Shown here: piece after piece, positions 1-10,879 of the stretch
Layout of the letters: every line of letters begins with the position of its first letter
Numbering within the stretch: the first letter of the stretch is position 1
UHGV virus genome: UHGV-0120148
Reading direction: 5' to 3' (one strand)
Length of the DNA: 10,879 nt
Source: a virus
Translations under genes and position numbers: made by a program
Notes under the pieces: model-generated
What the model was told of the DNA's origin: nothing
The model's database searches: none
Seen by the model: only the letters and a program-made list of their open reading frames with translations

Positions 1-1
1 T

Positions 2-529
2 GCTGATGGCGTGAAAATCGGAGTGAACAAGGTGGTTTCTCAGTGGATTAGCCAGGACAGCTTAACATTAGCTAAAACAGCTAATAAAACATTAGCCAAG
101 TCGGCTAATGGGTATAAGCCAAGTCAGCTAAACACAAAAGACAATATACAAAAGACAATAAATACAAATACCCCCTTACCCCCTAACGGGGGAGGCGATG
201 GGCAGGTTAAACCTGAACGTCGCAAGGCAGAACGCATCGACTACGAATCCTTCCTGAACGCCTACAACACCGAAGTCGGTGACAGACTTCCACACGCTGT
301 TGCGGTCAACGAGAAACGAAAACGCCGCCTGAAGAAAATCATCCCGCAACTGAAAACGCCAAACGTGGACGGTTTCAGAGCGTATGTCAGGGCGTTTGTG
401 CATCAGGCCAAGCCGTTTTACTTCGGAGACAACGACACGGGCTGGACGGCAGATTTTGATTACCTGCTGAGGGAAGATTCGTTAACGGGAGTTCGGGAAG
501 GGAAGTTTGCAGACAGGGGGATTGCATGA
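2..529 (+). CDS. Replication initiator (lambda O / P22 gene 18-like), C-terminal part; 5' end lies upstream of the window
   Basis: Frame is open from the window edge (ORF track starts at GTG 11). Ori-type iterons and an AT-rich tract sit inside the coding sequence, followed by a Pro/Gly/Thr linker and a conserved C-terminal domain. The stop overlaps the helicase start (ATGA at 526-529), as in the P22 gene 18/12 arrangement. Confidence 0.75.
48..175. repeat. Phage origin of replication: four iterons (about 17-18 bp, dyad-symmetric TTAGCC...GCTAA) followed by an AT-rich tract
   Basis: Direct repeats at about 48-65, 68-84, 92-108 and 115-131 (ttagccaggacagcttaa / ttagctaaaacagctaa / ttagccaagtcggctaa / taagccaagtcagctaa), spaced 20-24 bp apart, then an A-rich tract at 132-175. 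Same architecture as ori-lambda inside gene O, but a different iteron sequence. Confidence 0.6.
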
Positions 530-1902
530 AACAGGATATCGAAGCGAGCGTTATCGGTGGCCTGCTGATTGGTGGATTAACACCAATTGCCAGTGACGTT
601 CTGGCAACGCTTGAGCCGGAAGCGTTTTCAATACCGCTCTACCGGAAAGCCTTCGAGGTTATCCGCAAGCAGGCGCGAAACAGAAACCTAATCGACGCGC
701 TGATGGTTGCCGAGGCGTGCGGAGAGGAGCATTTCACGTCAATCCTGATGACCAGCAAAAACTGCCCGAGTTCCGCAAACCTGAAGGGATATGCCGGAAT
801 GGTCGCGGATAACTATCACCGCCGTCTGGTGCTGGAAATCATGGATGAAATGCGTGAACCAATTCAGAGCGGAACCATCGACGCATCGAGTCAGGCGATG
901 GATGAACTTGTAAAGCGTCTTTCAGCCATCAGAAAGCCCCGTGACGAGGTTAAACCTGTACGGTTAGGGGAAATCATAACTGACTACACTGACACGCTTG
1001 ACAGGCGTCTGAGGAACGGAGAAGAGTCCGATACCCTGAAGACCGGAATCGAAGAACTTGACGCTATCACCGGAGGGATGAACGCGGAAGACCTGGTGAT
1101 AATCGCCGCTCGTCCTGGTATGGGGAAAACCGAACTGGCGCTGAAGATTGCCGAAGGCGTTGCAAGCCGCGTTATTCCTGGTTCTGACGTCCGGCGCGGA
1201 GTGTTGATTTTTTCGATGGAAATGAGCGCATTGCAGATTGCAGAGCGGAGCATTGCCAACGCCGGGAGGATGTCGGTTAGCGTGCTGCGAAATCCTGCAT
1301 CGATGGATGACGAAGGCTGGGCGCGTGTTGCTAACGGCATGAGTCAGCTTGCAGATTTGGATGTATGGGTAGTCGATGCCTCGCGGTTATCGGTCGAAGA
1401 AATACGCTCAATCGCAGAACGGCACAAACAGGAAAATCCAAACCTGTCACTCATCATGGCGGATTATCTTGGCCTGATTGAGAAGCCGAAAGCAGACCGT
1501 AACGACCTCGCAATTGCTCACATCTCAGGAAGCCTGAAGGCGATGGCGAAAGACCTGAAAACGCCTGTTATCTCCCTGAGTCAGCTTTCGCGCGATGTTG
1601 AGAAGCGACCAAACAAACGCCCGACAAACGCAGATTTGCGTGATTCAGGAAGCATTGAACAGGACGCAGACTCAATCATCATGCTCTATCGGGAAGCGGT
1701 ATATGACGAGAACAGTAGCGCCGCGCCATTTGCTGAAATCATCGTGACGAAAAACCGTTTTGGCTCGCTTGGTACGGTTTACCAGCGATTCTGCAACGGA
1801 CACTTTGTTGCATGTGACCAAGACGAAGCCAGACAGATTTGCACAGCATCAAATGCACCTGCTGCGCGTGGCAGACGATATGCACAAGGGGCTGACGTAT
1901 GA
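526..1902 (+). CDS. DnaB-family replicative DNA helicase (P22 gene 12-like), 458 aa
   Basis: Walker A motif [14 protein letters not shown] and DnaB-like C-terminal ATPase region; 458 aa; start overlaps the upstream initiator stop; sits in the position of lambda P. Confidence 0.88.
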
Positions 1903-1927
1903 CCATCTACATCACTGAGCTAATAAC

Positions 1928-1959
1928 AGGCCTGCTGGTAATCGCAGGCCTTTTTATTT
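1928..1959 (+). terminator. Rho-independent terminator, tR2-like
   Basis: Perfect 8-bp stem aggcctgc / gcaggcct with loop tggtaatc, followed by tttttattt, between the helicase stop and ninB as in lambda. Confidence 0.75.
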
Positions 1960-1975
1960 GGGGGAGAGGGAAGTC

Positions 1976-2416
1976 ATGAAAAAACTAACCTTTGAAATTC
2001 GATCTCCAGCACATCAGCAAAACGCTATTCACGCAGTACAGCAAATTCTTCCAGACCCAACCAAACCAATCGTAGTAACCATTCAGGAACGCAACCGCAG
2101 CTTAGACCAAAACAGGAAGCTATGGGCCTGCTTAGGTGACGTCTCTCGTCAGGTTGAATGGCATGGTCGCTGGCTGGATGCAGAAAGCTGGAAGTGTGTG
2201 TTTACCGCAGCATTAAAGCAGCAGGATGTTGTTCCTAACCTTGCCGGGAATGGCTTTGTGGTAATAGGCCAGTCAACCAGCAGGATGCGTGTAAGCGAAT
2301 TTGCGGAGCTATTAGAGCTTATACAGGCATTCGGTACAGAGCGTGGCGTTAAGTGGTCGGACGAAGCGCGACTGGCTCTCGAATGGAAAGCGCGATGGGG
2401 AGACAGGGCGGCATGA
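1976..2416 (+). CDS. ninB: NinB recombination protein (146 aa)
   Basis: Protein [28 protein letters not shown]... matches lambda NinB from recall. RBS gggagaggg lies 6 nt upstream of ATG 1976; the ORF-track start at 1958 is a TTG upstream extension. Confidence 0.9.
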
Positions 2417-2589
2417 GACGACAGCGACGAAGTATCACCGACATCATCTGCGAAAACTGCAAATACCTTCCAACGAAACGCTCCAGAAATAAACCCAAGC
2501 CAATCCCAAAAGAATCTGACGTAAAAACCTTCAATTACACGGCTCACCTGTGGGATATCCGGTGGCTAAGACATCGTGCGAGGAAATAA
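2413..2589 (+). CDS. ninE: NinE-family small basic protein (58 aa)
   Basis: [58 protein letters not shown]; resembles nin-region NinE proteins (K-RKP...YTA-L-D--WLR motif, from recall of DLP12 NinE). ATG overlaps the ninB stop (ATGA). Assignment as NinE rather than NinD is from recall and not certain. Confidence 0.6.
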
Positions 2590-2591
2590 CA

Positions 2592-2993
2592 ATGCTTTTA
2601 ATTCAACCTGGATTTGGCCTTAGCATCAAAAAAGGGCACATGTTTGGCGAGAAAGAGTCTCAACGAAAAATGGTGTCGATACAGTTGCCATTTATCAGTA
2701 TTTATTGGCTAAACAGGGAGGCAACAAATTATTGGTATACATGCGCCAGAGCAGCATTTAACGACCCTGACTGGTTTGTGAAAAACCACCACGCAGTTCG
2801 TCAGGCAAAGAGAAAGGCCAATACGACATACATGAAGGCGTATCGAAAAGCATGGAAAGAACACCGCGATCGATACCAACAAGACATGGAAAAGCTTGAA
2901 TCAGAAAACATGGAATTAAGACGAAAGCTTGGTGAAGCAAAACGAGACATTGATGCTTACAAGCGACTTTTTAATGGTGAAAGCCATGCTTAG
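2592..2993 (+). CDS. Hypothetical nin-region protein (133 aa), basic with C-terminal coiled-coil; not part of the lambda nin set
   Basis: ORF in the position P22 occupies with ninX (between ninE and ninF). RBS gagga precedes ATG 2592; the ORF-track start at 2550 lies inside ninE and is rejected. AT-richer 5' half; C-terminus KRKANTTYMKAYRKAWKEHRDRYQQDMEKLESENMELRRKLGEAKRDIDAYKRLF looks like a basic region plus heptad repeat. Start could also be a downstream Met. Confidence 0.5.
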   Translation: MLLIQPGFGLSIKKGHMFGEKESQRKMVSIQLPFISIYWLNREATNYWYTCARAAFNDPDWFVKNHHAVRQAKRKANTTYMKAYRKAWKEHRDRYQQDMEKLESENMELRRKLGEAKRDIDAYKRLFNGESHA

Positions 2994-3162
2994 TCCATCC
3001 CAATCCCTTCAATACCAGAAAGAAAGCGTCGAGCGGGCTTTAACGTGCGCTAACTGCGGTCAGAAGCTGCATGTGCTGGAAGTTCACGTGTGCTCCGATT
3101 GCTGCGCAGAACTGATGAGCGATCCGAATAGCTCAATGTACGAGGAAGAAGACGATGGCTAA
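2986..3162 (+). CDS. ninF: NinF (58 aa, Cys-rich)
   Basis: [58 protein letters not shown] matches lambda NinF from recall; start overlaps the upstream ORF by 8 nt. Confidence 0.85.
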
Positions 3163-3763
3163 ACCAGCGCGAAGACGATGTAAAAACGAAGAATGTCGGG
3201 AATGGTTTCACCCTGCATTCGCCAATCAGTGGTGGTGCTCTCCAGAGTGTGGAACCAAGATAGCACTCGAACGACGAAGCAAAGAACGCGAAAAAGCGGA
3301 AAAGGCAGCAGAGAAGAAACGACGAGAGGAGCAGAAACAGAAAGATAAACTTAAGATTCGAAAACTCGCCTTAAAGCCCCGCAGTTACTGGATTAAACAA
3401 GCCCAACAAGCCGTAAACGCCTTCATCAGAGAAAGAGACCGCGACTTACCATGTATCTCGTGCGGAACGCTCACGTCTGCTCAGTGGGATGCCGGACATT
3501 ACCGGACAACTGCTGCGGCACCTCAACTCCGATTTGATGAACGCAATATTCACAAGCAATGCGTGGTGTGCAACCAGCACAAAAGCGGAAATCTCGTTCC
3601 GTATCGCGTCGAACTGATTAATCGCATCGGGCAGGAAGCAGTAGACGAAATCGAATCAAACCATAACCGCCATCGCTGGACTGTCGAAGAGTGCAGGGCC
3701 ATCAAGGCGGAGTATCAGCAGAAACTCAAAGACCTGCGAAACAGCAGAAGTGAGGCCGCATGA
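3155..3763 (+). CDS. ninG: NinG / Rap recombination-associated protein (202 aa)
   Basis: Near-identical to lambda NinG from recall ([22 protein letters not shown]..., Cys clusters); ATG overlaps the ninF stop. Confidence 0.9.
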
Positions 3764-3966
3764 CGTTCTCAGTAAAAACCATTCCAGACATGCTCGTTGA
3801 AGCATACGGAAACCAGACAGAAGTAGCACGCAGACTGAAATGTAGTCGCGGTACGGTCAGAAAATACGTTGATGATAAAGACGGGAAAATGCACGCCATC
3901 GTCAACGACGTTCTCATGGTTCATCGCGGATGGAGTGAAAGAGATGCGCTATTACGAAAGAATTGA
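3760..3966 (+). CDS. ninH: NinH (68 aa, HTH DNA-binding)
   Basis: [37 protein letters not shown]... matches lambda NinH from recall; ATGA overlap with the ninG stop. Confidence 0.9.
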
Positions 3967-4609
3967 TGGCAGCAAATACCGAAATATTTGGGTAGCTGGC
4001 GATCTGCACGGATGCTACACGAACCTGATGAACAAACTGGATACGATTGGATTCGACAACAAAAAAGACCTGCTTATCTCGGTGGGCGATTTGGTTGATC
4101 GTGGTGCAGAGAACGTTGAATGCCTGGAATTAATCACATTCCCCTGGTTCAGAGCTGTACGTGGAAACCATGAGCAAATGATGATTGATGGCTTATCAGA
4201 GCGTGGAAACGTTAATCACTGGCTGCTTAATGGCGGTGGCTGGTTCTTTAATCTCGATTACGACAAAGAAATTCTGGCTAAAGCTCTTGCCCATAAAGCA
4301 GATGAACTTCCGTTAATCATCGAACTGGTGAGCAAAGATAAAAAATATGTCATCTGCCACGCCGATTATCCTTGTGACGAATACGAGTTTGGAAAGCCAG
4401 TTGATCATCAGCAGGTAATCTGGAACCGCGAACGAATCAGCAACTCACAAAACGGGATCGTGAAAGAAATCAAAGGCGCGGACACGTTCATCTTTGGTCA
4501 TACGCCAGCAGTGAAACCACTCAAGTTTGCCAACCAAATGTATATCGATACCGGCGCAGTGTTCTGCGGAAACCTAACATTGATTCAGGTACAGGGAGAA
4601 GGCGCATGA
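3944..4609 (+). CDS. ninI: NinI Ser/Thr protein phosphatase (221 aa)
   Basis: Metallophosphatase motifs GDLHG, GDLVDRG and GNHE; matches lambda NinI starting at [12 protein letters not shown] 3944 has RBS ggagtgaaagag; the ORF-track start at 3869 is an upstream extension overlapping ninH. Confidence 0.9.
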
Positions 4610-5229
4610 GACTCGAAAGCGTAGCTAAATTTCATTCGCCAAAAAGCCCGATGATGAGCGACTCACCACGGGCCACGGCTTCTGACTCTCTTTCCGGTAC
4701 TGATGTGATGGCTGCTATGGGGATGGCACAATCACAAGCCGGATTCGGGATGGCTGCATTTTGCGGTAAGCACGAACTCAGCCAGAACGACAAACAAAAG
4801 GCTATCAACTATCTGATGCAATTTGCACACAAGGTATCGGGGAAATACCGTGGTGTGGCAAAGCTCGAAGGAAATACTAAGGCAAAGGTACTGCAAGTGC
4901 TCGCAACATTCGCTTATGCGGATTATTGCCGTAGTGCCGCGACGCCGGGCGCAAGATGCAGAGATTGCCACGGTACAGGTCGTGCGGTTGATATAGCAAA
5001 AACAGAGCAGTGGGGGAGAGTTGTCGAGAAAGAGTGCGGAAGATGCAAAGGCGTCGGCTATTCAAGAATGCCAGCAAGCGCTGCATATCGCGCTGTAACG
5101 ATGCTAATCCCAAACCTTACTCAACCCACCTGGTCACGCACTGTTAAGCCGCTGTATGACGCTCTGGTGGTGCAATGCCACAAAGAAGAGTCAATCGCAG
5201 ACAACATTTTGAATGCGGTCACACGTTAG
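4606..5229 (+). CDS. Q: Late-gene antiterminator Q (207 aa)
   Basis: Essentially lambda Q ([31 protein letters not shown]..., zinc-binding CRDCHGTG...CGRCKGVG); ATGA overlap with the ninI stop. Confidence 0.93.
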
Positions 5230-5272
5230 CAGCATGATTGCCACGGATGGCAACATATTAACGGCATGATAT

Positions 5273-5301
5273 TGACTTTTTGAATAAAGTTGGGTAAATT
5301 T
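5273..5301 (+). promoter_or_regulatory. Late promoter PR' (-35 TTGACT, 17-bp spacer, -10 TAAATT), with the qut region immediately downstream
   Basis: ttgactttttgaataaagttgggtaaatt matches the lambda PR' region from recall; sits just downstream of Q. Confidence 0.7.
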
Positions 5302-5442
5302 GACCAAACGATGGGTTAATTCGCTCGTTGTGGTAGTGAGATGAAAAGAGGCGGCGCTTACTACCGATTCCGCCTAGTTGGTCACTTCGACGTATCGTCT
5401 GGAACTCCAACCATCGCAGGCTGAGAGGTCTGCAAATGCAAT

Positions 5443-5502
5443 CCCGAAACAGTTCGCAGGTAATAGTTAGAGCCTGCGCAACGGTTTCTGGATTTTTTAT
5501 TT
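5443..5502 (+). terminator. tR' terminator (3' end of the 6S late leader RNA)
   Basis: Long imperfect hairpin cccgaaacagttcgcagg...cctgcgcaacggtttctgg followed by attttttattt, about 190 nt downstream of the PR' start, as in lambda. Confidence 0.7.
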
Positions 5503-5574
5503 GGGTCAGTCGTATAAAGGTCATTACGGAAGGCTGTTAACCTTCTTATCGTGGTTCGAGTCCACGCTGCCCCC
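5503..5574 (+). tRNA. tRNA-like gene, anticodon GTT (Asn) by hand fold; atypical (one acceptor-stem mismatch, no encoded CCA); possibly a pseudo-tRNA
   Basis: Hand fold: acceptor gggtcag/ctgcccc (6 of 7 pairs), D-loop with GG, anticodon stem gaagg/ccttc with loop ctGTTaa, T-stem cgtgg/ccacg with T-loop ttcgagt (TTCRANY consensus). Confidence 0.4.
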
Positions 5575-5583
5575 TCCAAATAT

Positions 5584-5659
5584 GCTGGTTTAGCTCCAAT
5601 GGTAGAGCAGTCGCCTTGTAAGCGAATGGGTAGCGGTTCAAGTCCGTTAACCAGCACCA
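5584..5659 (+). tRNA. tRNA, anticodon TGT (Thr) by hand fold, with encoded CCA
   Basis: Perfect 7-bp acceptor stem gctggtt/aaccagc, D-arm gctc-caatggta-gagc, anticodon loop ctTGTaa, T-stem agcgg/ccgtt with T-loop ttcaagt, discriminator A plus CCA. Confidence 0.6.
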
Positions 5660-5777
5660 TTACTGAGCCGTAGCCACTGGCTATTCTGAATTCATCAGTG
5701 ATAGTTATGCTGCGGCCTTCTTTTTTCCCCTTCCCAATATAAGAACTACGCAATCCGTTACTGGCGGAGGCGTTGCT

Positions 5778-5993
5778 ATGAAATCAATGGACAAAATCTC
5801 AACTGGCATTGCCTACGGAACATCCGCTGGTAGTGCGGGATACTGGTTTTTACAGTGGTTGGATCAGGTCAGTCCATCACAGTGGGCTGCGATTGGGGTG
5901 CTTGGAAGCCTTGTGTTGGGTTTTCTCACCTATCTGACAAATCTGTACTTCAAAATCAGAGAAGACAGAAGAAAGGCTGCGAGAGGTGAATAA
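5778..5993 (+). CDS. S: Holin S, phage-21-type pinholin (71 aa) with dual-start motif
   Basis: [71 protein letters not shown] matches S21 from recall; Met1 and Met4 give the antiholin/holin dual start; two TMDs; RBS ggagg. Confidence 0.88.
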
Positions 5994-6490
5994 TGCCTCC
6001 ATCATTACGAAAAGCCGTTGCTGCGGCTATTGGTGGCGGGGCTATTGCTATAGCATCTGTGTTAATCACTGGCCCAAGTGGTAACGATGGTCTGGAAGGT
6101 GTGAGACATAATCCTTACAAAGACATAGTTGGTGTATGGACTGTATGTTACGGGCATACAGGAAAAGACATCATTCCCGGTAAAACGTATACCGAAGCAG
6201 AGTGCAAAGCCCTCCTGAATAAAGACCTTGCCACTGTCGCCAGACAAATTAACCCGTACATCAAAGTCGATATACCGGAAACAACGCGCGGCGCTCTTTA
6301 CTCGTTCGTCTACAACGTGGGTGCTGGCAATTTCAGAACATCGACGCTTCTTCGCAAAATCAACCAGGGCGATATCAAAGGCGCATGTGACCAGCTACGT
6401 CGCTGGACATACGCTGGCGGTAAGCAATGGAAAGGGCTGATGACTCGCCGTGAGATTGAGCGTGAAGTCTGTTTGTGGGGGCAACAATGA
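5993..6490 (+). CDS. R: SAR endolysin R (phage-21-type lysozyme, 165 aa)
   Basis: N-terminal Gly/Ala-rich signal-anchor-release domain [20 protein letters not shown] followed by a T4-lysozyme-like catalytic region; start overlaps the S stop (TAATG). Confidence 0.88.
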
Positions 6491-6951
6491 GCAGGGTAAC
6501 CGCGATTATCTCCGCTCTGGTTATCTGCATCATCGTCTGCCTGTCATGGGCTGTTAATCATTACCGTGATAACGCCATTACCTACAAAGCCCAGCGCGAC
6601 AAAAATGCCAGAGAACTGAAGCTGGCGAACGCGGCAATTACTGACATGCAGATGCGTCAGCGTGATGTTGCTGCGCTCGATGCAAAATACACGAAGGAGT
6701 TAGCTGATGCGAAAGCTGAAAATGATGCTCTGCGTGATGATGTTGCCGCTGGTCGTCGTCGGTTGCACATCAAAGCAGTCTGTCAGTCAGTGCGTGAAGC
6801 CACCACCGCCTCCGGCGTGGATAATGCAGCCTCCCCCCGACTGGCAGACACCGCTGAACGGGATTATTTCACCCTCCGGGAACGACTGGTAATGATGCAG
6901 GCCCAACTTGAAGGTGCTCAGCAATACATAACCGAGCAGTGTTTAAAGTAA
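6487..6951 (+). CDS. Rz: Rz i-spanin (154 aa)
   Basis: N-terminal TMD followed by a coiled-coil periplasmic domain; ATG 6487 overlaps the R stop (ATGA). The ORF-track start at 6475 is an upstream extension. Confidence 0.85.
6707..6892 (+). CDS. Rz1: Rz1 o-spanin lipoprotein (61 aa), embedded in Rz in the +1 frame
   Basis: Lipoprotein signal with lipobox LVVVGC, proline-rich mature part ([15 protein letters not shown]), entirely inside Rz. Confidence 0.8.
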
Positions 6952-7088
6952 AATCTTAACTACAATATGATTCATTTTGATGATTGTTTCATAAGGAACA
7001 GTGAAGTAAGATCTAAGAGGAGTTAAATTTTATACAGTATAATCATAATATTGCAGCAAGGTGGTTATAATTGAAAGAATATTTAGAT

Positions 7089-8546
7089 ATGAATACATCT
7101 CATGTAAGAGTTGTTACTCATATGTGTGGGTTCCTGGTTTGGCTCTATAGTCTTTCAATGTTGCCACCAATGGTTGTAGCATTGTTTTATAAAGAAAAAA
7201 GCCTGTTCGTTTTCTTTATAACTTTCGTTATATTTTTTTGCATTGGTGGCGGAGCGTGGTATACAACTAAGAAATCTGGCATTCAATTACGTACCCGTGA
7301 TGGGTTTATTATAATTGTAATGTTTTGGATTTTGTTTTCTGTTATTAGTGCATTCCCTTTATGGATTGACTCAGAACTTAATTTAACGTTCATTGATGCT
7401 CTGTTTGAAGGGGTTTCTGGAATAACAACAACAGGAGCAACTGTAATTGATGATGTTAGTTCATTACCTCGGGCATATTTGTACTATCGGTCACAGTTAA
7501 ATTTTATAGGTGGTTTAGGAGTTATTGTTCTGGCGGTTGCTGTATTGCCATTATTGGGTATTGGTGGTACAAAGCTTTATCAGTCAGAAATGCCGGGGCC
7601 ATTTAAGGATGACAAACTCACTCCCCGCCTGGCCGATACGTCACGGACACTGTGGATAACTTATTCTTTATTAGGTATTGCTTGTATTGTCTGTTATAGA
7701 CTTGCAGGAATGCCTTTGTTTGATGCTATTTGTCACGGGATTTCCACAGTTTCGCTTGGTGGTTTCTCAACTCATAGCGAGAGTATCGGATATTTTAATA
7801 ACTATTTGGTTGAGCTGGTGGCTGGTTCTTTTTCCCTGCTATCGGCTTTCAACTTCACTCTTTGGTATATTGTTATTAGCAGGAAAACGATAAAACCTTT
7901 AATCAGAGATATTGAACTTCGTTTCTTTCTGTTAATAGCCTTAGGGGTGATCATTGTTACCTCTTTCCAGGTCTGGCATATAGGTATGTATGACTTGCAT
8001 GGAAGTTTTATTCATTCGTTTTTTCTTGCCAGCTCCATGCTCACTGATAATGGTTTAGCTACGCAGGATTATGCAAACTGGCCCACGCACACGATAGTGT
8101 TTTTGCTGTCGTCAAGTTTCTTTGGGGGATGTATAGGTTCAACTTGTGGTGGAATTAAGTCACTTCGATTTCTTATACTTTTCAAACAAAGCAAACACGA
8201 GATAAATCAGCTTTCTCATCCCAGAGCGTTGTTGAGTGTAAATGTAGGAGGGAAGATAGTTACAGATCGTGTAATGAGGTCTGTATGGAGTTTCTTTTTT
8301 CTTTATACTCTCTTCACGGTGTTTTTTATACTGGTGTTAAATGGTATGGGATATGATTTTCTTACATCATTTGCAACAGTGGCTGCATGTATTAATAATA
8401 TGGGATTAGGTTTTGGGGCTACTGCATCGTCATTCGGAGTGCTTAATGACATTGCAAAATATTTAATGTGCATAGCTATGATTCTTGGTCGCCTTGAAAT
8501 TTATCCTGTTATTATATTGTTTTCAGGTTTTTTTTGGCGCTCCTAA
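7089..8546 (+). CDS. trkG: TrkG/TrkH-family potassium uptake membrane protein (485 aa); prophage moron
   Basis: Polytopic membrane protein matching E. coli Rac-prophage TrkG from MNTSHVRVVTHMCGFLV... Strongly AT-rich relative to the flanking phage genes. An alternative TTG start at 7071 (6 codons upstream) has a better-placed RBS (aaggtgg). Confidence 0.88.
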   Translation: MNTSHVRVVTHMCGFLVWLYSLSMLPPMVVALFYKEKSLFVFFITFVIFFCIGGGAWYTTKKSGIQLRTRDGFIIIVMFWILFSVISAFPLWIDSELNLTFIDALFEGVSGITTTGATVIDDVSSLPRAYLYYRSQLNFIGGLGVIVLAVAVLPLLGIGGTKLYQSEMPGPFKDDKLTPRLADTSRTLWITYSLLGIACIVCYRLAGMPLFDAICHGISTVSLGGFSTHSESIGYFNNYLVELVAGSFSLLSAFNFTLWYIVISRKTIKPLIRDIELRFFLLIALGVIIVTSFQVWHIGMYDLHGSFIHSFFLASSMLTDNGLATQDYANWPTHTIVFLLSSSFFGGCIGSTCGGIKSLRFLILFKQSKHEINQLSHPRALLSVNVGGKIVTDRVMRSVWSFFFLYTLFTVFFILVLNGMGYDFLTSFATVAACINNMGLGFGATASSFGVLNDIAKYLMCIAMILGRLEIYPVIILFSGFFWRS

Positions 8547-8632
8547 TATATGGCTGATTTATAATTGTGAGTTTAATATTATATTGACTCACTCATTGAT
8601 CCAATACCTAACTTTACCAGCAACACCTCCGC

Positions 8633-8664
8633 CCCCAGTAGCACTGGCTGCTGGGGTGCGTTTT
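8633..8664 (+). terminator. Possible intrinsic terminator downstream of trkG
   Basis: 10-bp stem ccccagtagc / gctgctgggg (one G-U pair) with loop actg, followed by tgcgttttatt; the T-run is offset 4 nt from the stem, so this is weak. Confidence 0.3.
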
Positions 8665-8683
8665 ATTCATAAAGCAAGGCTGT

Positions 8684-9115
8684 ATGAGCGAGAAATTAAA
8701 GATAGTCTATCGCCCATTACAAGAATTGTCACCGTATGCGCACAACGCCAGGACGCACAGTACTGAGCAGGTGGCACAACTGGTAGAAAGTATTAAGCAA
8801 TTCGGCTGGACTAATCCGGTGCTGATTGACGAAAAGGGCGAAATTATTGCGGGTCACGGTCGTGTTATGGCGGCTGAAATGCTCAAAATGGATTCTGTTC
8901 CGGTCATTGTTCTGTCTGGCCTGACGGATGAGCAGAAAAAGGCGTACCGCCTGGCAGATAATCGCCTACCGATGAATGCTGGCTGGGATGAAGATCTGTT
9001 GCGGATGGAGCTGTCGGACCTAATCAATGCTGATTTTGATGTCTCCCTGACAGGCTTCGGCCCGACAGAAATTGATGAACTGTTGACGGATGTTTTGCCC
9101 GGTATCGGGCCTTAA
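8684..9115 (+). CDS. ParB-like nuclease domain protein (143 aa), probably a truncated N-terminal part of a larger protein
   Basis: ParB/Srx-like N-terminal domain features (IIAGHGRVMAA, RLADN) and the ...SLTGFGPTEIDELL linker that in phage ParB-methyltransferase fusions precedes a methylase domain; here the ORF stops about 15 codons later, 3 nt from the convergent tfa stop. Confidence 0.65.
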   Translation: MSEKLKIVYRPLQELSPYAHNARTHSTEQVAQLVESIKQFGWTNPVLIDEKGEIIAGHGRVMAAEMLKMDSVPVIVLSGLTDEQKKAYRLADNRLPMNAGWDEDLLRMELSDLINADFDVSLTGFGPTEIDELLTDVLPGIGP

Positions 9116-9118
9116 TTT

Positions 9119-9646
9119 TTACTCTGGTTTTTGTGGCCATTCAGGATTTGCCGTATCCACACGGCTGACCAGAACACTGTAGCGTTCCCATGCTTCCAGT
9201 CGTGTGCGTTCCTCGTCTGTTGCCATATTCAGCCTGACAGCGCGCTCCAGCGGCAAAATTACGGATTCAGCTTCGGAAAGCAAAGCTGCCTTCTGTAATT
9301 CCGCCTGTTGTTGCTGTTCATCTGCCGTATAAATCCGTTTAACCACAGCTCCGTCCCTAAACATCCACTTACTGGAATCATCAGCGCAGCGGTTGGCTGT
9401 AATATCTGGAACCTCAACGACGCTATAACCTTCAGGGTTAAGCGTGGAGGCATCTTTGGTGATGGCGACAATAATATTATTTGCATCGTAAACAATCTTT
9501 ATTGTGTCTGGCTGAAAGTTTTTCACTTCCTCATACCAGTTTTTTCCGTCTTCGGACCATAACCAGATAACATCAAAATTCTTTGTTAGCTGATATTGTT
9601 CTTTTGTTTTTGGATTTCCAGACTTAATATTTTTTAAATGCTGCAT
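9119..9646 (-). CDS. tfa: Tail fibre assembly protein (Tfa / Mu U' type, 175 aa)
   Basis: C-terminal conserved Tfa motif ...[25 protein letters not shown]...; located immediately downstream of the tail-fibre variable segment on the same strand. Confidence 0.8.
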
Positions 9647-9649
9647 AAA

Positions 9650-10654
9650 TTACACCTGTACGACGTTATACCATGTGCCATTGATGTATTTTTGTATTGG
9701 TCTGAATACTGCCGGATCATCGCCATCAACTGCACCGATAATGCCAAGCCCCGTAATTGCATGACCTGATTTCTCATACATCACGCCTTTTTGCATAGTC
9801 TGAACAACACGTGTACCAAGTCGGACATCTCTCACATAACGTGAGTCAAAATTACCATAATTGCCGGGAATAACTTGCGCACCGCAAAGCCAGTTGCCAT
9901 TGTTGTCCATGTACGCCTGACCATCGGTGCCATTGGCTGTCCTTGAGTTATTAATCATGTAGATGCCAAATTGCTTATTCCCCAGTCCACCAATCATAAA
10001 TTTGCGATCAGCGTGGTCCTGACGAAGTAATGCCTGCGCACCATCGGTGGATACCGCATTGCGTCCCAAAATAACATTCTGGTCACGCATATGAATCCAC
10101 ATGCCGGTACTACTGTTAATTGCAAAACGGTTTGCAAATATATCCCCTGTAACATCAAGACCATGCCCCATGCTTATCCGACCAGTTCTGAGATTAAGCG
10201 TAAAGGGGCGTAGTGGCCCTATATCACCATTTTCTCCCTCATTCTCTCGTGTAGGGATGATATGCAGGCATTCTTCAGAACGACGAAAAATAGCACCAAA
10301 AGATGAATTAAATATCCTCAGTGCATTGACTGTCGATATTTTTACTTCACTGCTGAAAAGGGCTTTAACAAGGACAGACAAAGCATCCCATTTAAGAGTC
10401 ATCAGGTCTTTTGTTGTGGTGCTCTGGCGGCTTCTCCATTTGAAATATTCATTGCCGTTGTCGCCTGTTTCAAACCACATGTATGAATCAGTGTCGCTGT
10501 CGGCATTATTTTTAAAACCAATCTTTGCCCAGTCAGTATTTCTAATCCAGGCAAGGATTGAGTCGTTTTCAAAAGTAAGCCCACCGGACAAGGTATCGCC
10601 ATTCTTTTGCACGGCGTTCCTGGCCCTGTTTACCGTTTCCTGTAAACCGAGGTT
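9650..10654 (-). CDS. Tail fibre protein, variable C-terminal segment (Sv'-type) lacking the constant N-terminal part; silent cassette
   Basis: Open frame on the minus strand runs from inside the gix-like site (encoding NLGLQETVNRARNA, as in Mu/P1/e14 tail-fibre junctions) to the stop at 9650. No start codon or N-terminal constant domain is present; the ORF-track start at 10612 is an internal GTG. Gly/Asn-rich, fibre-like composition. Confidence 0.7.
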   Translation of the reverse strand, partial: NLGLQETVNRARNAVQKNGDTLSGGLTFENDSILAWIRNTDWAKIGFKNNADSDTDSYMWFETGDNGNEYFKWRSRQSTTTKDLMTLKWDALSVLVKALFSSEVKISTVNALRIFNSSFGAIFRRSEECLHIIPTRENEGENGDIGPLRPFTLNLRTGRISMGHGLDVTGDIFANRFAINSSTGMWIHMRDQNVILGRNAVSTDGAQALLRQDHADRKFMIGGLGNKQFGIYMINNSRTANGTDGQAYMDNNGNWLCGAQVIPGNYGNFDSRYVRDVRLGTRVVQTMQKGVMYEKSGHAITGLGIIGAVDGDDPAVFRPIQKYINGTWYNVVQV

Positions 10655-10662
10655 TTAGATAA
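10637..10662. other. Site-specific inversion crossover site (gix/pix-like, 26 bp) for a Gin/Pin-family invertase
   Basis: ttcctgtaaaccgaggttttagataa differs at one position from the Mu gix site as I recall it (TTCCTGTAAACCGAGGTTTTGGATAA); positioned between the 5' end of the silent tail-fibre segment and the invertase gene. Confidence 0.7.
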
Positions 10663-10716
10663 TGGCGGTTTCTGGCCTGCATGGCATGATTTGTGCTTTT
10701 GGACGGGAGATTCAGC

Positions 10717-10842
10717 GTGCTGATTGGCTATGTAAGGGTATCAACAAATGACCAGAATACAGACCTGCAACGAAACGCTCTTGTTTGTGCAGGATGTGAA
10801 CAAATATTTGAAGATAAATTAAGCGGGCACTGTTGCAAATAG
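10717..10842 (+). pseudogene. pin: Pin/Gin-family DNA invertase, N-terminal fragment (about 37 native codons) interrupted by IS26
   Basis: Translation [37 protein letters not shown] matches the serine-recombinase N-terminus of Pin/Gin (catalytic Ser in YVRVSTNDQ); the frame then reads into the IS26 inverted repeat and stops (HCCK*). Start appears to be GTG. Confidence 0.8.
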
Positions 10843-10879
10843 TCGGTGGTGATAAACTTATCATCCCCTTTTGCTGATG
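10826..10879 (+). mobile_element. IS26 (IS6 family), left terminal inverted repeat and first about 54 bp; continues beyond the window
   Basis: ggcactgttgcaaatagtcggtggtgataaacttatcatccccttttgctgatg matches the IS26 left end from recall, beginning with the 14-bp IR GGCACTGTTGCAAA; tnpA itself lies beyond the window. Confidence 0.85.

Follow-up and report, generated by a model that had tools for sequence, protein, structure and literature searches.

Why does a block of AT-rich DNA with a gene for potassium uptake lie directly behind the lysis genes of a lambdoid phage? The question is raised by the virus genome UHGV-0120148, of which we analysed one stretch of 10,879 nucleotides (nt), here called the window. 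Coordinates are those of the window, and features lie on its + strand unless stated otherwise. A preliminary description of 6952-8683, made from the sequence alone, had proposed that this segment is a moron, a concept of Hendrix and Juhala, carrying trkG between the lysis cassette and the late genes. Our analysis confirmed the overall observation and supported the main interpretation, with several details corrected below. We are confident that the segment is the trkG gene of the Rac-family lambdoid prophages, a horizontally acquired cargo gene for K+ uptake between Rz/Rz1 and ynaK.

The trkG segment and its place among Rac-type phages

The G+C content (GC) of 6952-8683 was 37.2%, compared to 49.3% in the left flank (1-6951), 50.1% in the lysis cassette and 49.5% in ynaK. 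Windows of the same length (1732 nt) that avoided the segment had a mean GC of 48.6% (standard deviation 1.8) and a minimum of 44.0%. Along the sequence, the GC fraction fell from 0.54 at 6601-6900 to 0.32 at 6901-7200, stayed at 0.34-0.42 to about 8550 and was 0.50 thereafter; the cumulative GC excess peaked at 6922, the end of Rz. The 5′ spacer was AT-richer than trkG itself (26.9% GC in 6952-7070, 25.5% in 6952-7088). In trkG, GC at third codon positions (GC3) was 32.5%, against 41-55% across the 11 other open reading frames (ORFs) of the window, and GC at second positions (GC2) was 39.7%, inside the range of those ORFs. Synonymous codon usage gave a chi-squared per degree of freedom (chi2/df) of 3.6 for trkG, compared to 0.85-2.0 when each other ORF was taken in turn, and ATA made up 37% of the isoleucine codons, against 14%. 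The sharp compositional drop described after Rz was thus seen in both GC windows and codon usage. A base composition distinct from that of the surrounding phage genes, as in a moron, supports the view that the segment is foreign, a horizontally acquired low-GC accessory gene. Rfam (E ≤ 0.1) gave no non-coding RNA in 6952-8683; its only matches were two tRNAs outside the segment.

The six-frame ORF list gave one long + strand ORF here, trkG (7071-8546), which encodes a membrane subunit of the Trk K+ uptake system, a TrkH-family protein of the Trk/Ktr/HKT superfamily, of 491 amino acids (aa) from TTG 7071, or of 485 aa from ATG 7089, the start annotated in strain K-12. The product matched Pfam TrkH (PF02386; E 9e-144, 480 bits with a cutoff of 27) over profile positions 3-500 of 502 and the TrkH family model TIGR00933 (413 bits, above the cutoff of 331). 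Its residues 13-491 aligned with residues 4-485 of the solved Vibrio TrkH structures 3PJZ/4J9U (E 4e-121). These matches and the close similarity to K-12 TrkG confirm the earlier identification as a TrkG/TrkH subunit. The pore-loop glycine motifs TTTGAT, GIGGT, SLGGFS and NNMGLG line up with the corresponding TrkH motifs, presumably the filter loops of the TrkH structure. The ORF was intact over its 491 codons.

Compared with K-12 TrkG, only four differences were found in 485 residues (A161T, S330N, L341S and C458Y). The protein fell inside a 99% cluster named TrkG, with 4894 member sequences, and it scored 453 bits with the TrkH equivalog NF008020, below the cutoff of 866. Because of these three results, the ORF is classified by sequence as an ortholog of TrkG and not as the core-genome TrkH. 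TrkG of K-12 works with TrkA, and also with SapD, and its Na+-dependent K+ uptake has been shown experimentally (PMC9898762). With the TrkA of its host (in K-12 also SapD), the window allele would be expected to carry out the same uptake.

In K-12, the Rac prophage matched 6507-8937 at 99.3% nucleotide identity, with the Rz remnant rzpR/rzoR, trkG (b1363) and ynaK in the same order and the same flanks on both sides of trkG; no similarity to Rac was found left of 6507. The proposed equivalence to the Rac-borne gene of K-12 therefore holds for the protein, for the 5′ spacer, which is identical, for the Rz-trkG-ynaK position and for the low GC, which both copies have (PMC9898762). The two elements differ in what surrounds the block. 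In K-12 Rac, Q, S, R and the 5′ portion of Rz have been lost and the early genes racR, recET and kilR remain, as do stfR/tfaR/pinR, whereas the window has an intact HK446/lambda-like nin-Q-PR′-S-R-Rz region, no structural genes and an end in the insertion sequence IS26. ynaK is cut at 9104 in the window and at the equivalent of 8937 in K-12 Rac. Although Rz-trkG-ynaK is collinear with Rac, the Rac-type early/replication region (racR, ydaS-ydaW, recET) is absent, and judged by its gene content the window is not a classical Rac prophage.

A closer picture of the intact arrangement came from vB_EcoS-683R6 (ON470595), one of the intact Rac-like phages recovered from E. coli, which is collinear over S-R-Rz-trkG-ynaK and 96.9% identical to 5777-9104. 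There, Q and tRNAs are followed by S, R, Rz and trkG, then by the gene of a 263-aa ParB-like protein, by two small genes and by those for terminase, portal and coat; this shows the ancestral position of trkG between the lysis and the packaging/head genes. The placement of trkG before the late genes in the preliminary description thus applies to ON470595; in the window, the late genes are gone. Downstream of trkG, ON470595 and its IMG/VR relatives have several genes that the window lacks: the ParB-like gene at its full length (263 aa), one resembling TET-associated glycosyltransferases, and those for terminase, portal and head. Their immunity/replication region, which is of the Rac type, and their Q, which is a different one, are likewise missing from the window. 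The glycosyltransferase-like gene (PF20691, E 4e-34) follows the ParB-like ynaK in the intact relatives (5764-6717 in both locus L094 and locus L101, and the equivalent 15069-16001 in locus L002) and is deleted from the window; its place hints that ynaK might belong to a DNA-modification module rather than to a partition system.

The block is common. At least 80% of 6400-9200 was present in 1496 of 5426 complete E. coli genomes, and the block also occurred, with the same flanks, in E. ruysiae and S. flexneri. A search of 50,697 phage records found TrkG in ten Rac-like ones only; the other TrkH-like matches, with about 30-43% identity, were in apparent host fragments or unannotated metagenomic contigs.

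On the left, the trkG-linked block appears to begin inside Rz. DLP12 Rz showed no difference from the window as far as 6876, then about 70% identity over the last 75 nt to the stop codon and no relation beyond, and the match of lambda-like phages also ended at 6876; this comparison sets off 6877-6951 as a Rac-type 3′ end of Rz. When IMG/VR loci were searched with a 30-mer probe from the Rac-type tail, 116 had enough sequence downstream of it, and in every one of these the tail led into the trkG leader. In 111 of them an ungapped identity test was passed, and five started with the same leader and were then shifted or diverging. From the right, trkG was present in 69 of 78 IMG/VR ynaK loci and absent in nine. 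ynaK of these nine relatives was 92-97% identical, and 5′ of it lay another lysis cassette, with Phage_holin_8, Phage_holin_3_7, an M15 peptidase endolysin and a small lipoprotein. Since the trkG-less ynaK phages match the window only from 8614 or 8630, the right limit is placed at about 8613-8629, and the trkG-linked DNA would span from about 6877 (or 6952 by composition) to that limit. The AT-rich 3′ spacer (8547-8613) would then still be trkG-specific. As expected of a moron, trkG was present or absent in relatives at the same map position; no phage with the same Rz tail and an abutting ynaK was found.

Other genes occupy the same slot elsewhere. DLP12 has borD after Rz in place of trkG, and other prophages with an identical R protein have KilA-N and DUF1398 genes there; this R protein is widespread (2902 blocks of the collection). 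As with lambda bor and DLP12 borD, the cargo lies directly after Rz/Rz1 and before the packaging genes and varies among homologous phages. bor, however, specifies a small lipoprotein and is read from the other strand, whereas trkG runs in the direction of the late operon and encodes, in 1.5 kb, a transporter of 10-12 helices. trkG occupies a variable cargo slot that runs from the spanin genes Rz/Rz1 to the ParB-like ynaK, the first gene of the packaging/head block. At 1878-3096, directly upstream of its holin genes, one of the trkG-less loci (L101, IMGVR_UViG_2778260991_000004) has a gene for an A subunit resembling that of pertussis toxin (PF02917, E 4e-15) and one for a putative B subunit; this is a different cargo in that lineage of phages.

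No direct or inverted repeats bracketing the segment were found, only short matches at chance level. There is thus no sign of a transposon- or integron-type insertion, and the original acquisition looks like an event of the illegitimate-recombination type rather than transposition.

As to the origin of the gene, the next protein after the 99% cluster was that of E. fergusonii (79% identity). Because nothing was found between 79% and 99%, the donor of Rac trkG is unsampled. This distribution would fit one capture event, after which the gene spread together with the phage. Further homologues, at 60-77%, were found in Citrobacter, Pectobacterium, Pantoea, Enterobacter, Buttiauxella, Serratia and Xenorhabdus. 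The chromosomal TrkG-type paralogues of Enterobacterales (E. fergusonii 79%, Citrobacter 77%, Pectobacterium 76%, Enterobacter 70%, Serratia 66%) belong to the same TrkG subfamily, are additional to trkH, and resemble the window gene in having a Shine-Dalgarno sequence, a TTG or GTG start and a lysine second codon. None of the six homologue contexts examined was a prophage late region; the neighbours included porin genes, ychF and the kdp operon, or the gene lay in a defence- or P4-like island. The GC of the homologues was 42-57%, tracking that of their hosts, and nucleotide similarity to the E. fergusonii gene was confined to 7066-8550. One homologue with 75% identity lies divergently beside kdpABC-kdpD (L240 3956-7476, Logan ERR14205218 contig), so that two K+ uptake systems stand side by side in an enterobacterium.

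Signals for translation and transcription

The preliminary description gave the segment its own ribosome-binding site, which we found as the Shine-Dalgarno sequence AAGGTGG at 7058-7064, read from the sequence, 6 nt 5′ of TTG 7071. The region it had proposed for promoter prediction ended at 7088, directly before ATG 7089. An in-frame TAA directly precedes TTG 7071. We aligned six TrkG-type homologues around the start codon; the N-terminus of the Serratia protein differs and did not align there. A GGAG-like motif with a TTG or GTG start was kept in the other five (E. fergusonii, Citrobacter, Pectobacterium, the kdp-linked homologue and Enterobacter), and a lysine codon came next in four of these (not E. 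fergusonii). The position of ATG 7089 was ATG in E. fergusonii only, and CTG, ATT, ATT or TTA in the other four. Most TrkG-type homologues are annotated at 491 aa. For these reasons, translation probably starts at TTG 7071, behind a strong Shine-Dalgarno sequence, to give a product of 491 aa, and the start annotated in K-12 would be six codons short.

The AT-rich untranslated spacer (6952-7070) would hold the trkG promoter and is an expected target of H-NS. Two perfect TATAAT hexamers were present (7038-7043 and 7066-7071), both without a good -35 partner, and footprinting was uninformative, as the upstream regions of the homologues had no alignable sequence beyond the Shine-Dalgarno sequence and start codon. 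Published work on K-12 gives experimental evidence. Genomic SELEX (systematic evolution of ligands by exponential enrichment) with RpoD holoenzyme detected a constitutive peak at trkG, and its authors conclude that trkG came into Rac along with its promoter (PMC5811629). The upstream fragment of K-12 trkG was promoter-active as a lux fusion (PMC9898762 supplement), and the primers of that fragment map to 6580-7088. trkG mRNA was higher in hns and hns stpA mutants of K-12 (PMC9898762). Since all 137 nt of 6952-7088 are 100% identical to K-12, these results should carry over to the window. They support the suggestion of a host-type promoter, and we infer that in a lysogen a sigma-70 promoter of its own, in the spacer, drives transcription of the window copy, with partial repression by H-NS as in K-12.

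Downstream of trkG, an intrinsic-terminator-like hairpin with a T-run (8630-8667) was found by terminator scan and folding, directly 5′ of ynaK. Positions 8630-8660 fold with -25.2 kcal/mol (z -4.5), and behind them comes GTTTTATT. A hairpin with TTTTTTATTCAT was found at the same place before ynaK in eight of the nine trkG-less relatives (the eight that were aligned), and the homology of these relatives to the window starts at 8614 or 8630. The possible terminator that had been attributed to the segment is thus present and strong, but because the trkG-less relatives keep it, the comparison places it in the phage backbone and not in the cargo. Transcription of trkG would probably stop at this hairpin, which appears not to have been brought in with the gene; an own 3′ terminator, as in a typical moron, was not found. 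A weak AT-rich palindrome (8567-8592, GTGAGT...ACTCAC; -8.1 kcal/mol, z -2.1) without a T-run lies 20 nt past the trkG stop codon, still within the DNA specific to trkG; it may be left over from a terminator of the donor or may be a protein site.

Upstream of the lysis genes, the window has Q, a lambda-type antiterminator (PF03589), and 43 nt past its stop codon a PR′-like late promoter (5272-5300), TTGACT and TAAATT with a spacing of 17, which we take to be the hexamers of lambda PR′. Read-through from PR′ by Q-modified polymerase is established lambda biology. Because a lambda-type PR′ and a lambda-type Q are both upstream, late read-through into trkG, which had been mentioned as possible, is plausible. 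During lytic growth, transcription by Q-modified RNA polymerase from PR′ would extend across S, R, Rz, trkG and the hairpin. The lysis cassette, described before as complete and apparently functional, consists of intact ORFs throughout: the P21-type holin gene S (5778-5993, PF04971), the lysozyme gene R (5993-6490, PF00959), Rz (6475/6487-6951, PF03245) and Rz1 (6707-6892), embedded in the +1 frame of Rz and recognized from its translation by the lipobox VVGC and a proline-rich tail. Between the PR′-like site and the holin gene, which is the usual slot of lambdoid tRNA genes, are tRNA-Asn(GTT) and tRNA-Thr(TGT) (5503-5659; ARAGORN; Rfam RF00005, 52.6 and 61.5 bits). ON470595 differs in having Thr and Gly tRNAs in that slot.

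A defective mosaic element that ends in IS26

The window as a whole joins two kinds of phage DNA. Positions 1-6603 matched phages of the HK446/HK544/mEp213 type, and E. coli prophages of that type, at about 97%; the genes of this left arm encode a replicative helicase, NinB, NinG, NinI and the lambda-type Q. Positions 6273-10879 matched at 99.4% a prophage remnant that is found in the chromosome of E. coli AH04 and on large plasmids of E. coli, Citrobacter freundii, Klebsiella and Enterobacter. All 26 mismatches to the AH04/plasmid copies lay in 6313-6466 (in R) and 9245-9320 (in a tail-fibre assembly gene; 15 mismatches), whereas 6467-9244 and 9321-10879 were identical. The two patches look like recombination or gene-conversion tracts and not like scattered mutations. 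Because one of the two clusters of differences lies at 6313-6466, we place inside R the recombination joint between the HK446-like left arm and the Rac-type block. By this comparison, trkG probably reached the element as part of the larger Rz-trkG-ynaK block, and such a transfer is likelier than a fresh insertion of trkG into this element. The present copy thus stands in a defective mosaic, with HK446-like replication, nin and Q genes joined in R to Rac-type Rz-trkG-ynaK.

On the right, where late genes had been expected, the window has a truncated ynaK, an inverted remnant of tail-fibre genes and IS26; all head and tail genes are missing, and the structural genes are deleted after about codon 140 of ynaK. 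ynaK′ (8684-9115, PF02195, a ParB N-terminal-domain gene) is cut to 143 aa, compared to 263 aa in the intact phage copy, and its homology ends at 9104. The tail-fibre assembly gene tfa (9119-9646) and a C-terminal fragment of a tail-fibre gene (9650-10612), both on the - strand and covered by PF02413 and PF21446, are the remnant of an invertible tail-fibre segment; the annotation of strain AH04 has a partial tail protein and a partial recombinase in the same DNA. The last 54 nt of the window (10826-10879, no strand assigned) are the terminus of IS26, a 100% match to the IS26 ends in L001 (NZ_CP081706.1), L029 (NZ_CP110881.1) and L030 (NZ_CP034659.1). This suggests either a contig break at a repeated insertion sequence or an IS26-bounded element.

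No single record among the complete E. coli genomes, PLSDB plasmids and phage records held at least 80% of the whole window. Examples of the remnant are the mcr-10 plasmid pMCR10_SCLZS19 of Enterobacter kobei, the IncHI1B/IncY plasmid of E. coli ATCC 98082 and the AH04 chromosome. The plasmids and AH04 have the same ynaK/tfa deletion joint as the window; the IS26 junction is common to the plasmids but not to AH04. In both, R breaks off at the equivalent of 6273, where lambdoid early-left genes (DUF1317 ... xis, int) adjoin it, whereas in the window R is whole and is preceded by S, PR′, Q and the nin region. In all 15 PLSDB plasmids that have the segment, its whole length of 1732 nt matched at 99.9-100%, and none showed a disruption. 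Twelve of the 15 were predicted to be conjugative, and their hosts were E. coli, Klebsiella, Enterobacter and Citrobacter. The plasmid remnant has IS26 at one end, or at both ends in one plasmid, and its neighbours are IS26, ISEc68 and Tn5403.

Cargo gene, late gene or passenger

Several results weigh against trkG as an acquired cargo gene that is active in this element. A chimera probe made of 600 nt of the Rz 3′ end and ynaK 5′ end found no direct Rz/ynaK junction in the 5426 E. coli genomes, and no clean pre-insertion site was found in these genomes or in the 116 judged IMG/VR loci; the original insertion endpoints are for this reason estimates from the comparisons above. The hairpin shared with trkG-less relatives rules out a private promoter-gene-terminator unit. 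A consensus promoter scan, a kind of check that the preliminary description had proposed, gave six promoter-like sites with 5.7 ± 2.5 expected, which is chance level, and did not place the promoter. The window has no trkA, so that transport would depend on the host, and it has no repressor, integrase or late genes, which bears on whether Q and PR′ are active in such a remnant.

A different role would be that of a phage late gene, transcribed chiefly from PR′ with Q and serving lytic growth rather than lysogenic conversion, for example by keeping K+ or the membrane potential favourable for late protein synthesis or by tuning holin triggering. The position of trkG, which belongs to the late operon by place and orientation and lies immediately behind Rz/Rz1 and ahead of the packaging genes, would suit this role, as would the intact PR′ and Q upstream and the constant linkage to the Rac-type Rz tail in the 116 loci. 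We nevertheless consider it very unlikely. K-12 trkG is expressed and functional in a cryptic prophage without Q, S and R, from a constitutive RpoD promoter and with transcript levels near those of trkH (PMC5811629, PMC9898762). Related phages do without the gene, and trkG is kept while the rest of the prophage decays (PMC5700373).

The degraded surroundings (truncated ynaK, deleted structural genes, the IS26 end) and the recurrence of the block on plasmids next to IS26, ISEc68 and Tn5403 might instead indicate a decaying, non-functional passenger in a dead prophage fragment, kept by hitch-hiking with IS26 or the plasmid. We would be surprised if this were so, given an ORF intact over all its codons and only four substitutions away from the experimentally active K-12 protein, conserved P-loop glycine motifs, an upstream control region identical to that of K-12 and the undisrupted, nearly invariant plasmid copies.

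That the low GC reflects only the amino acid composition of a hydrophobic membrane protein native to the phage, as the richness in Phe, Ile and Leu and the ordinary GC2 might suggest, deserves next to no credence and was rejected, because the deficit is greatest at synonymous sites (GC3, ATA share, codon usage), the non-coding flanks are AT-richer still, E. coli trkH has 53% GC (PMC9898762), and homologues of similar amino acid composition follow the GC of their hosts.

We therefore keep to the reading of the segment as acquired Rac-family cargo. Much of this is already known: the low GC, the rac location, the function with TrkA, the own promoter and the partial silencing by H-NS (PMC9898762, PMC5811629, PMC5700373). 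The description of trkG as a gene of low GC in the rac region goes back to 1991 (reference 33 in PMC9898762, as cited there). The refinements made here are the limits of the trkG block (about 6877 and about 8613-8629), the reassignment of the terminator to the phage backbone, the likely TTG start, the lack of late genes in the window and the presence of the degraded, IS26-associated remnant also on plasmids of several genera. The finding is thus explained by an ordinary cargo gene of Rac-type phages and has little discovery value. A further idea, which we think unlikely, is that the phage-derived K+/Na+ transporter has become a selected plasmid cargo, spread across genera by IS26 and conjugation rather than merely hitch-hiking. 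If this were true, trkG would be an ion-homeostasis trait moving among genera on plasmids.

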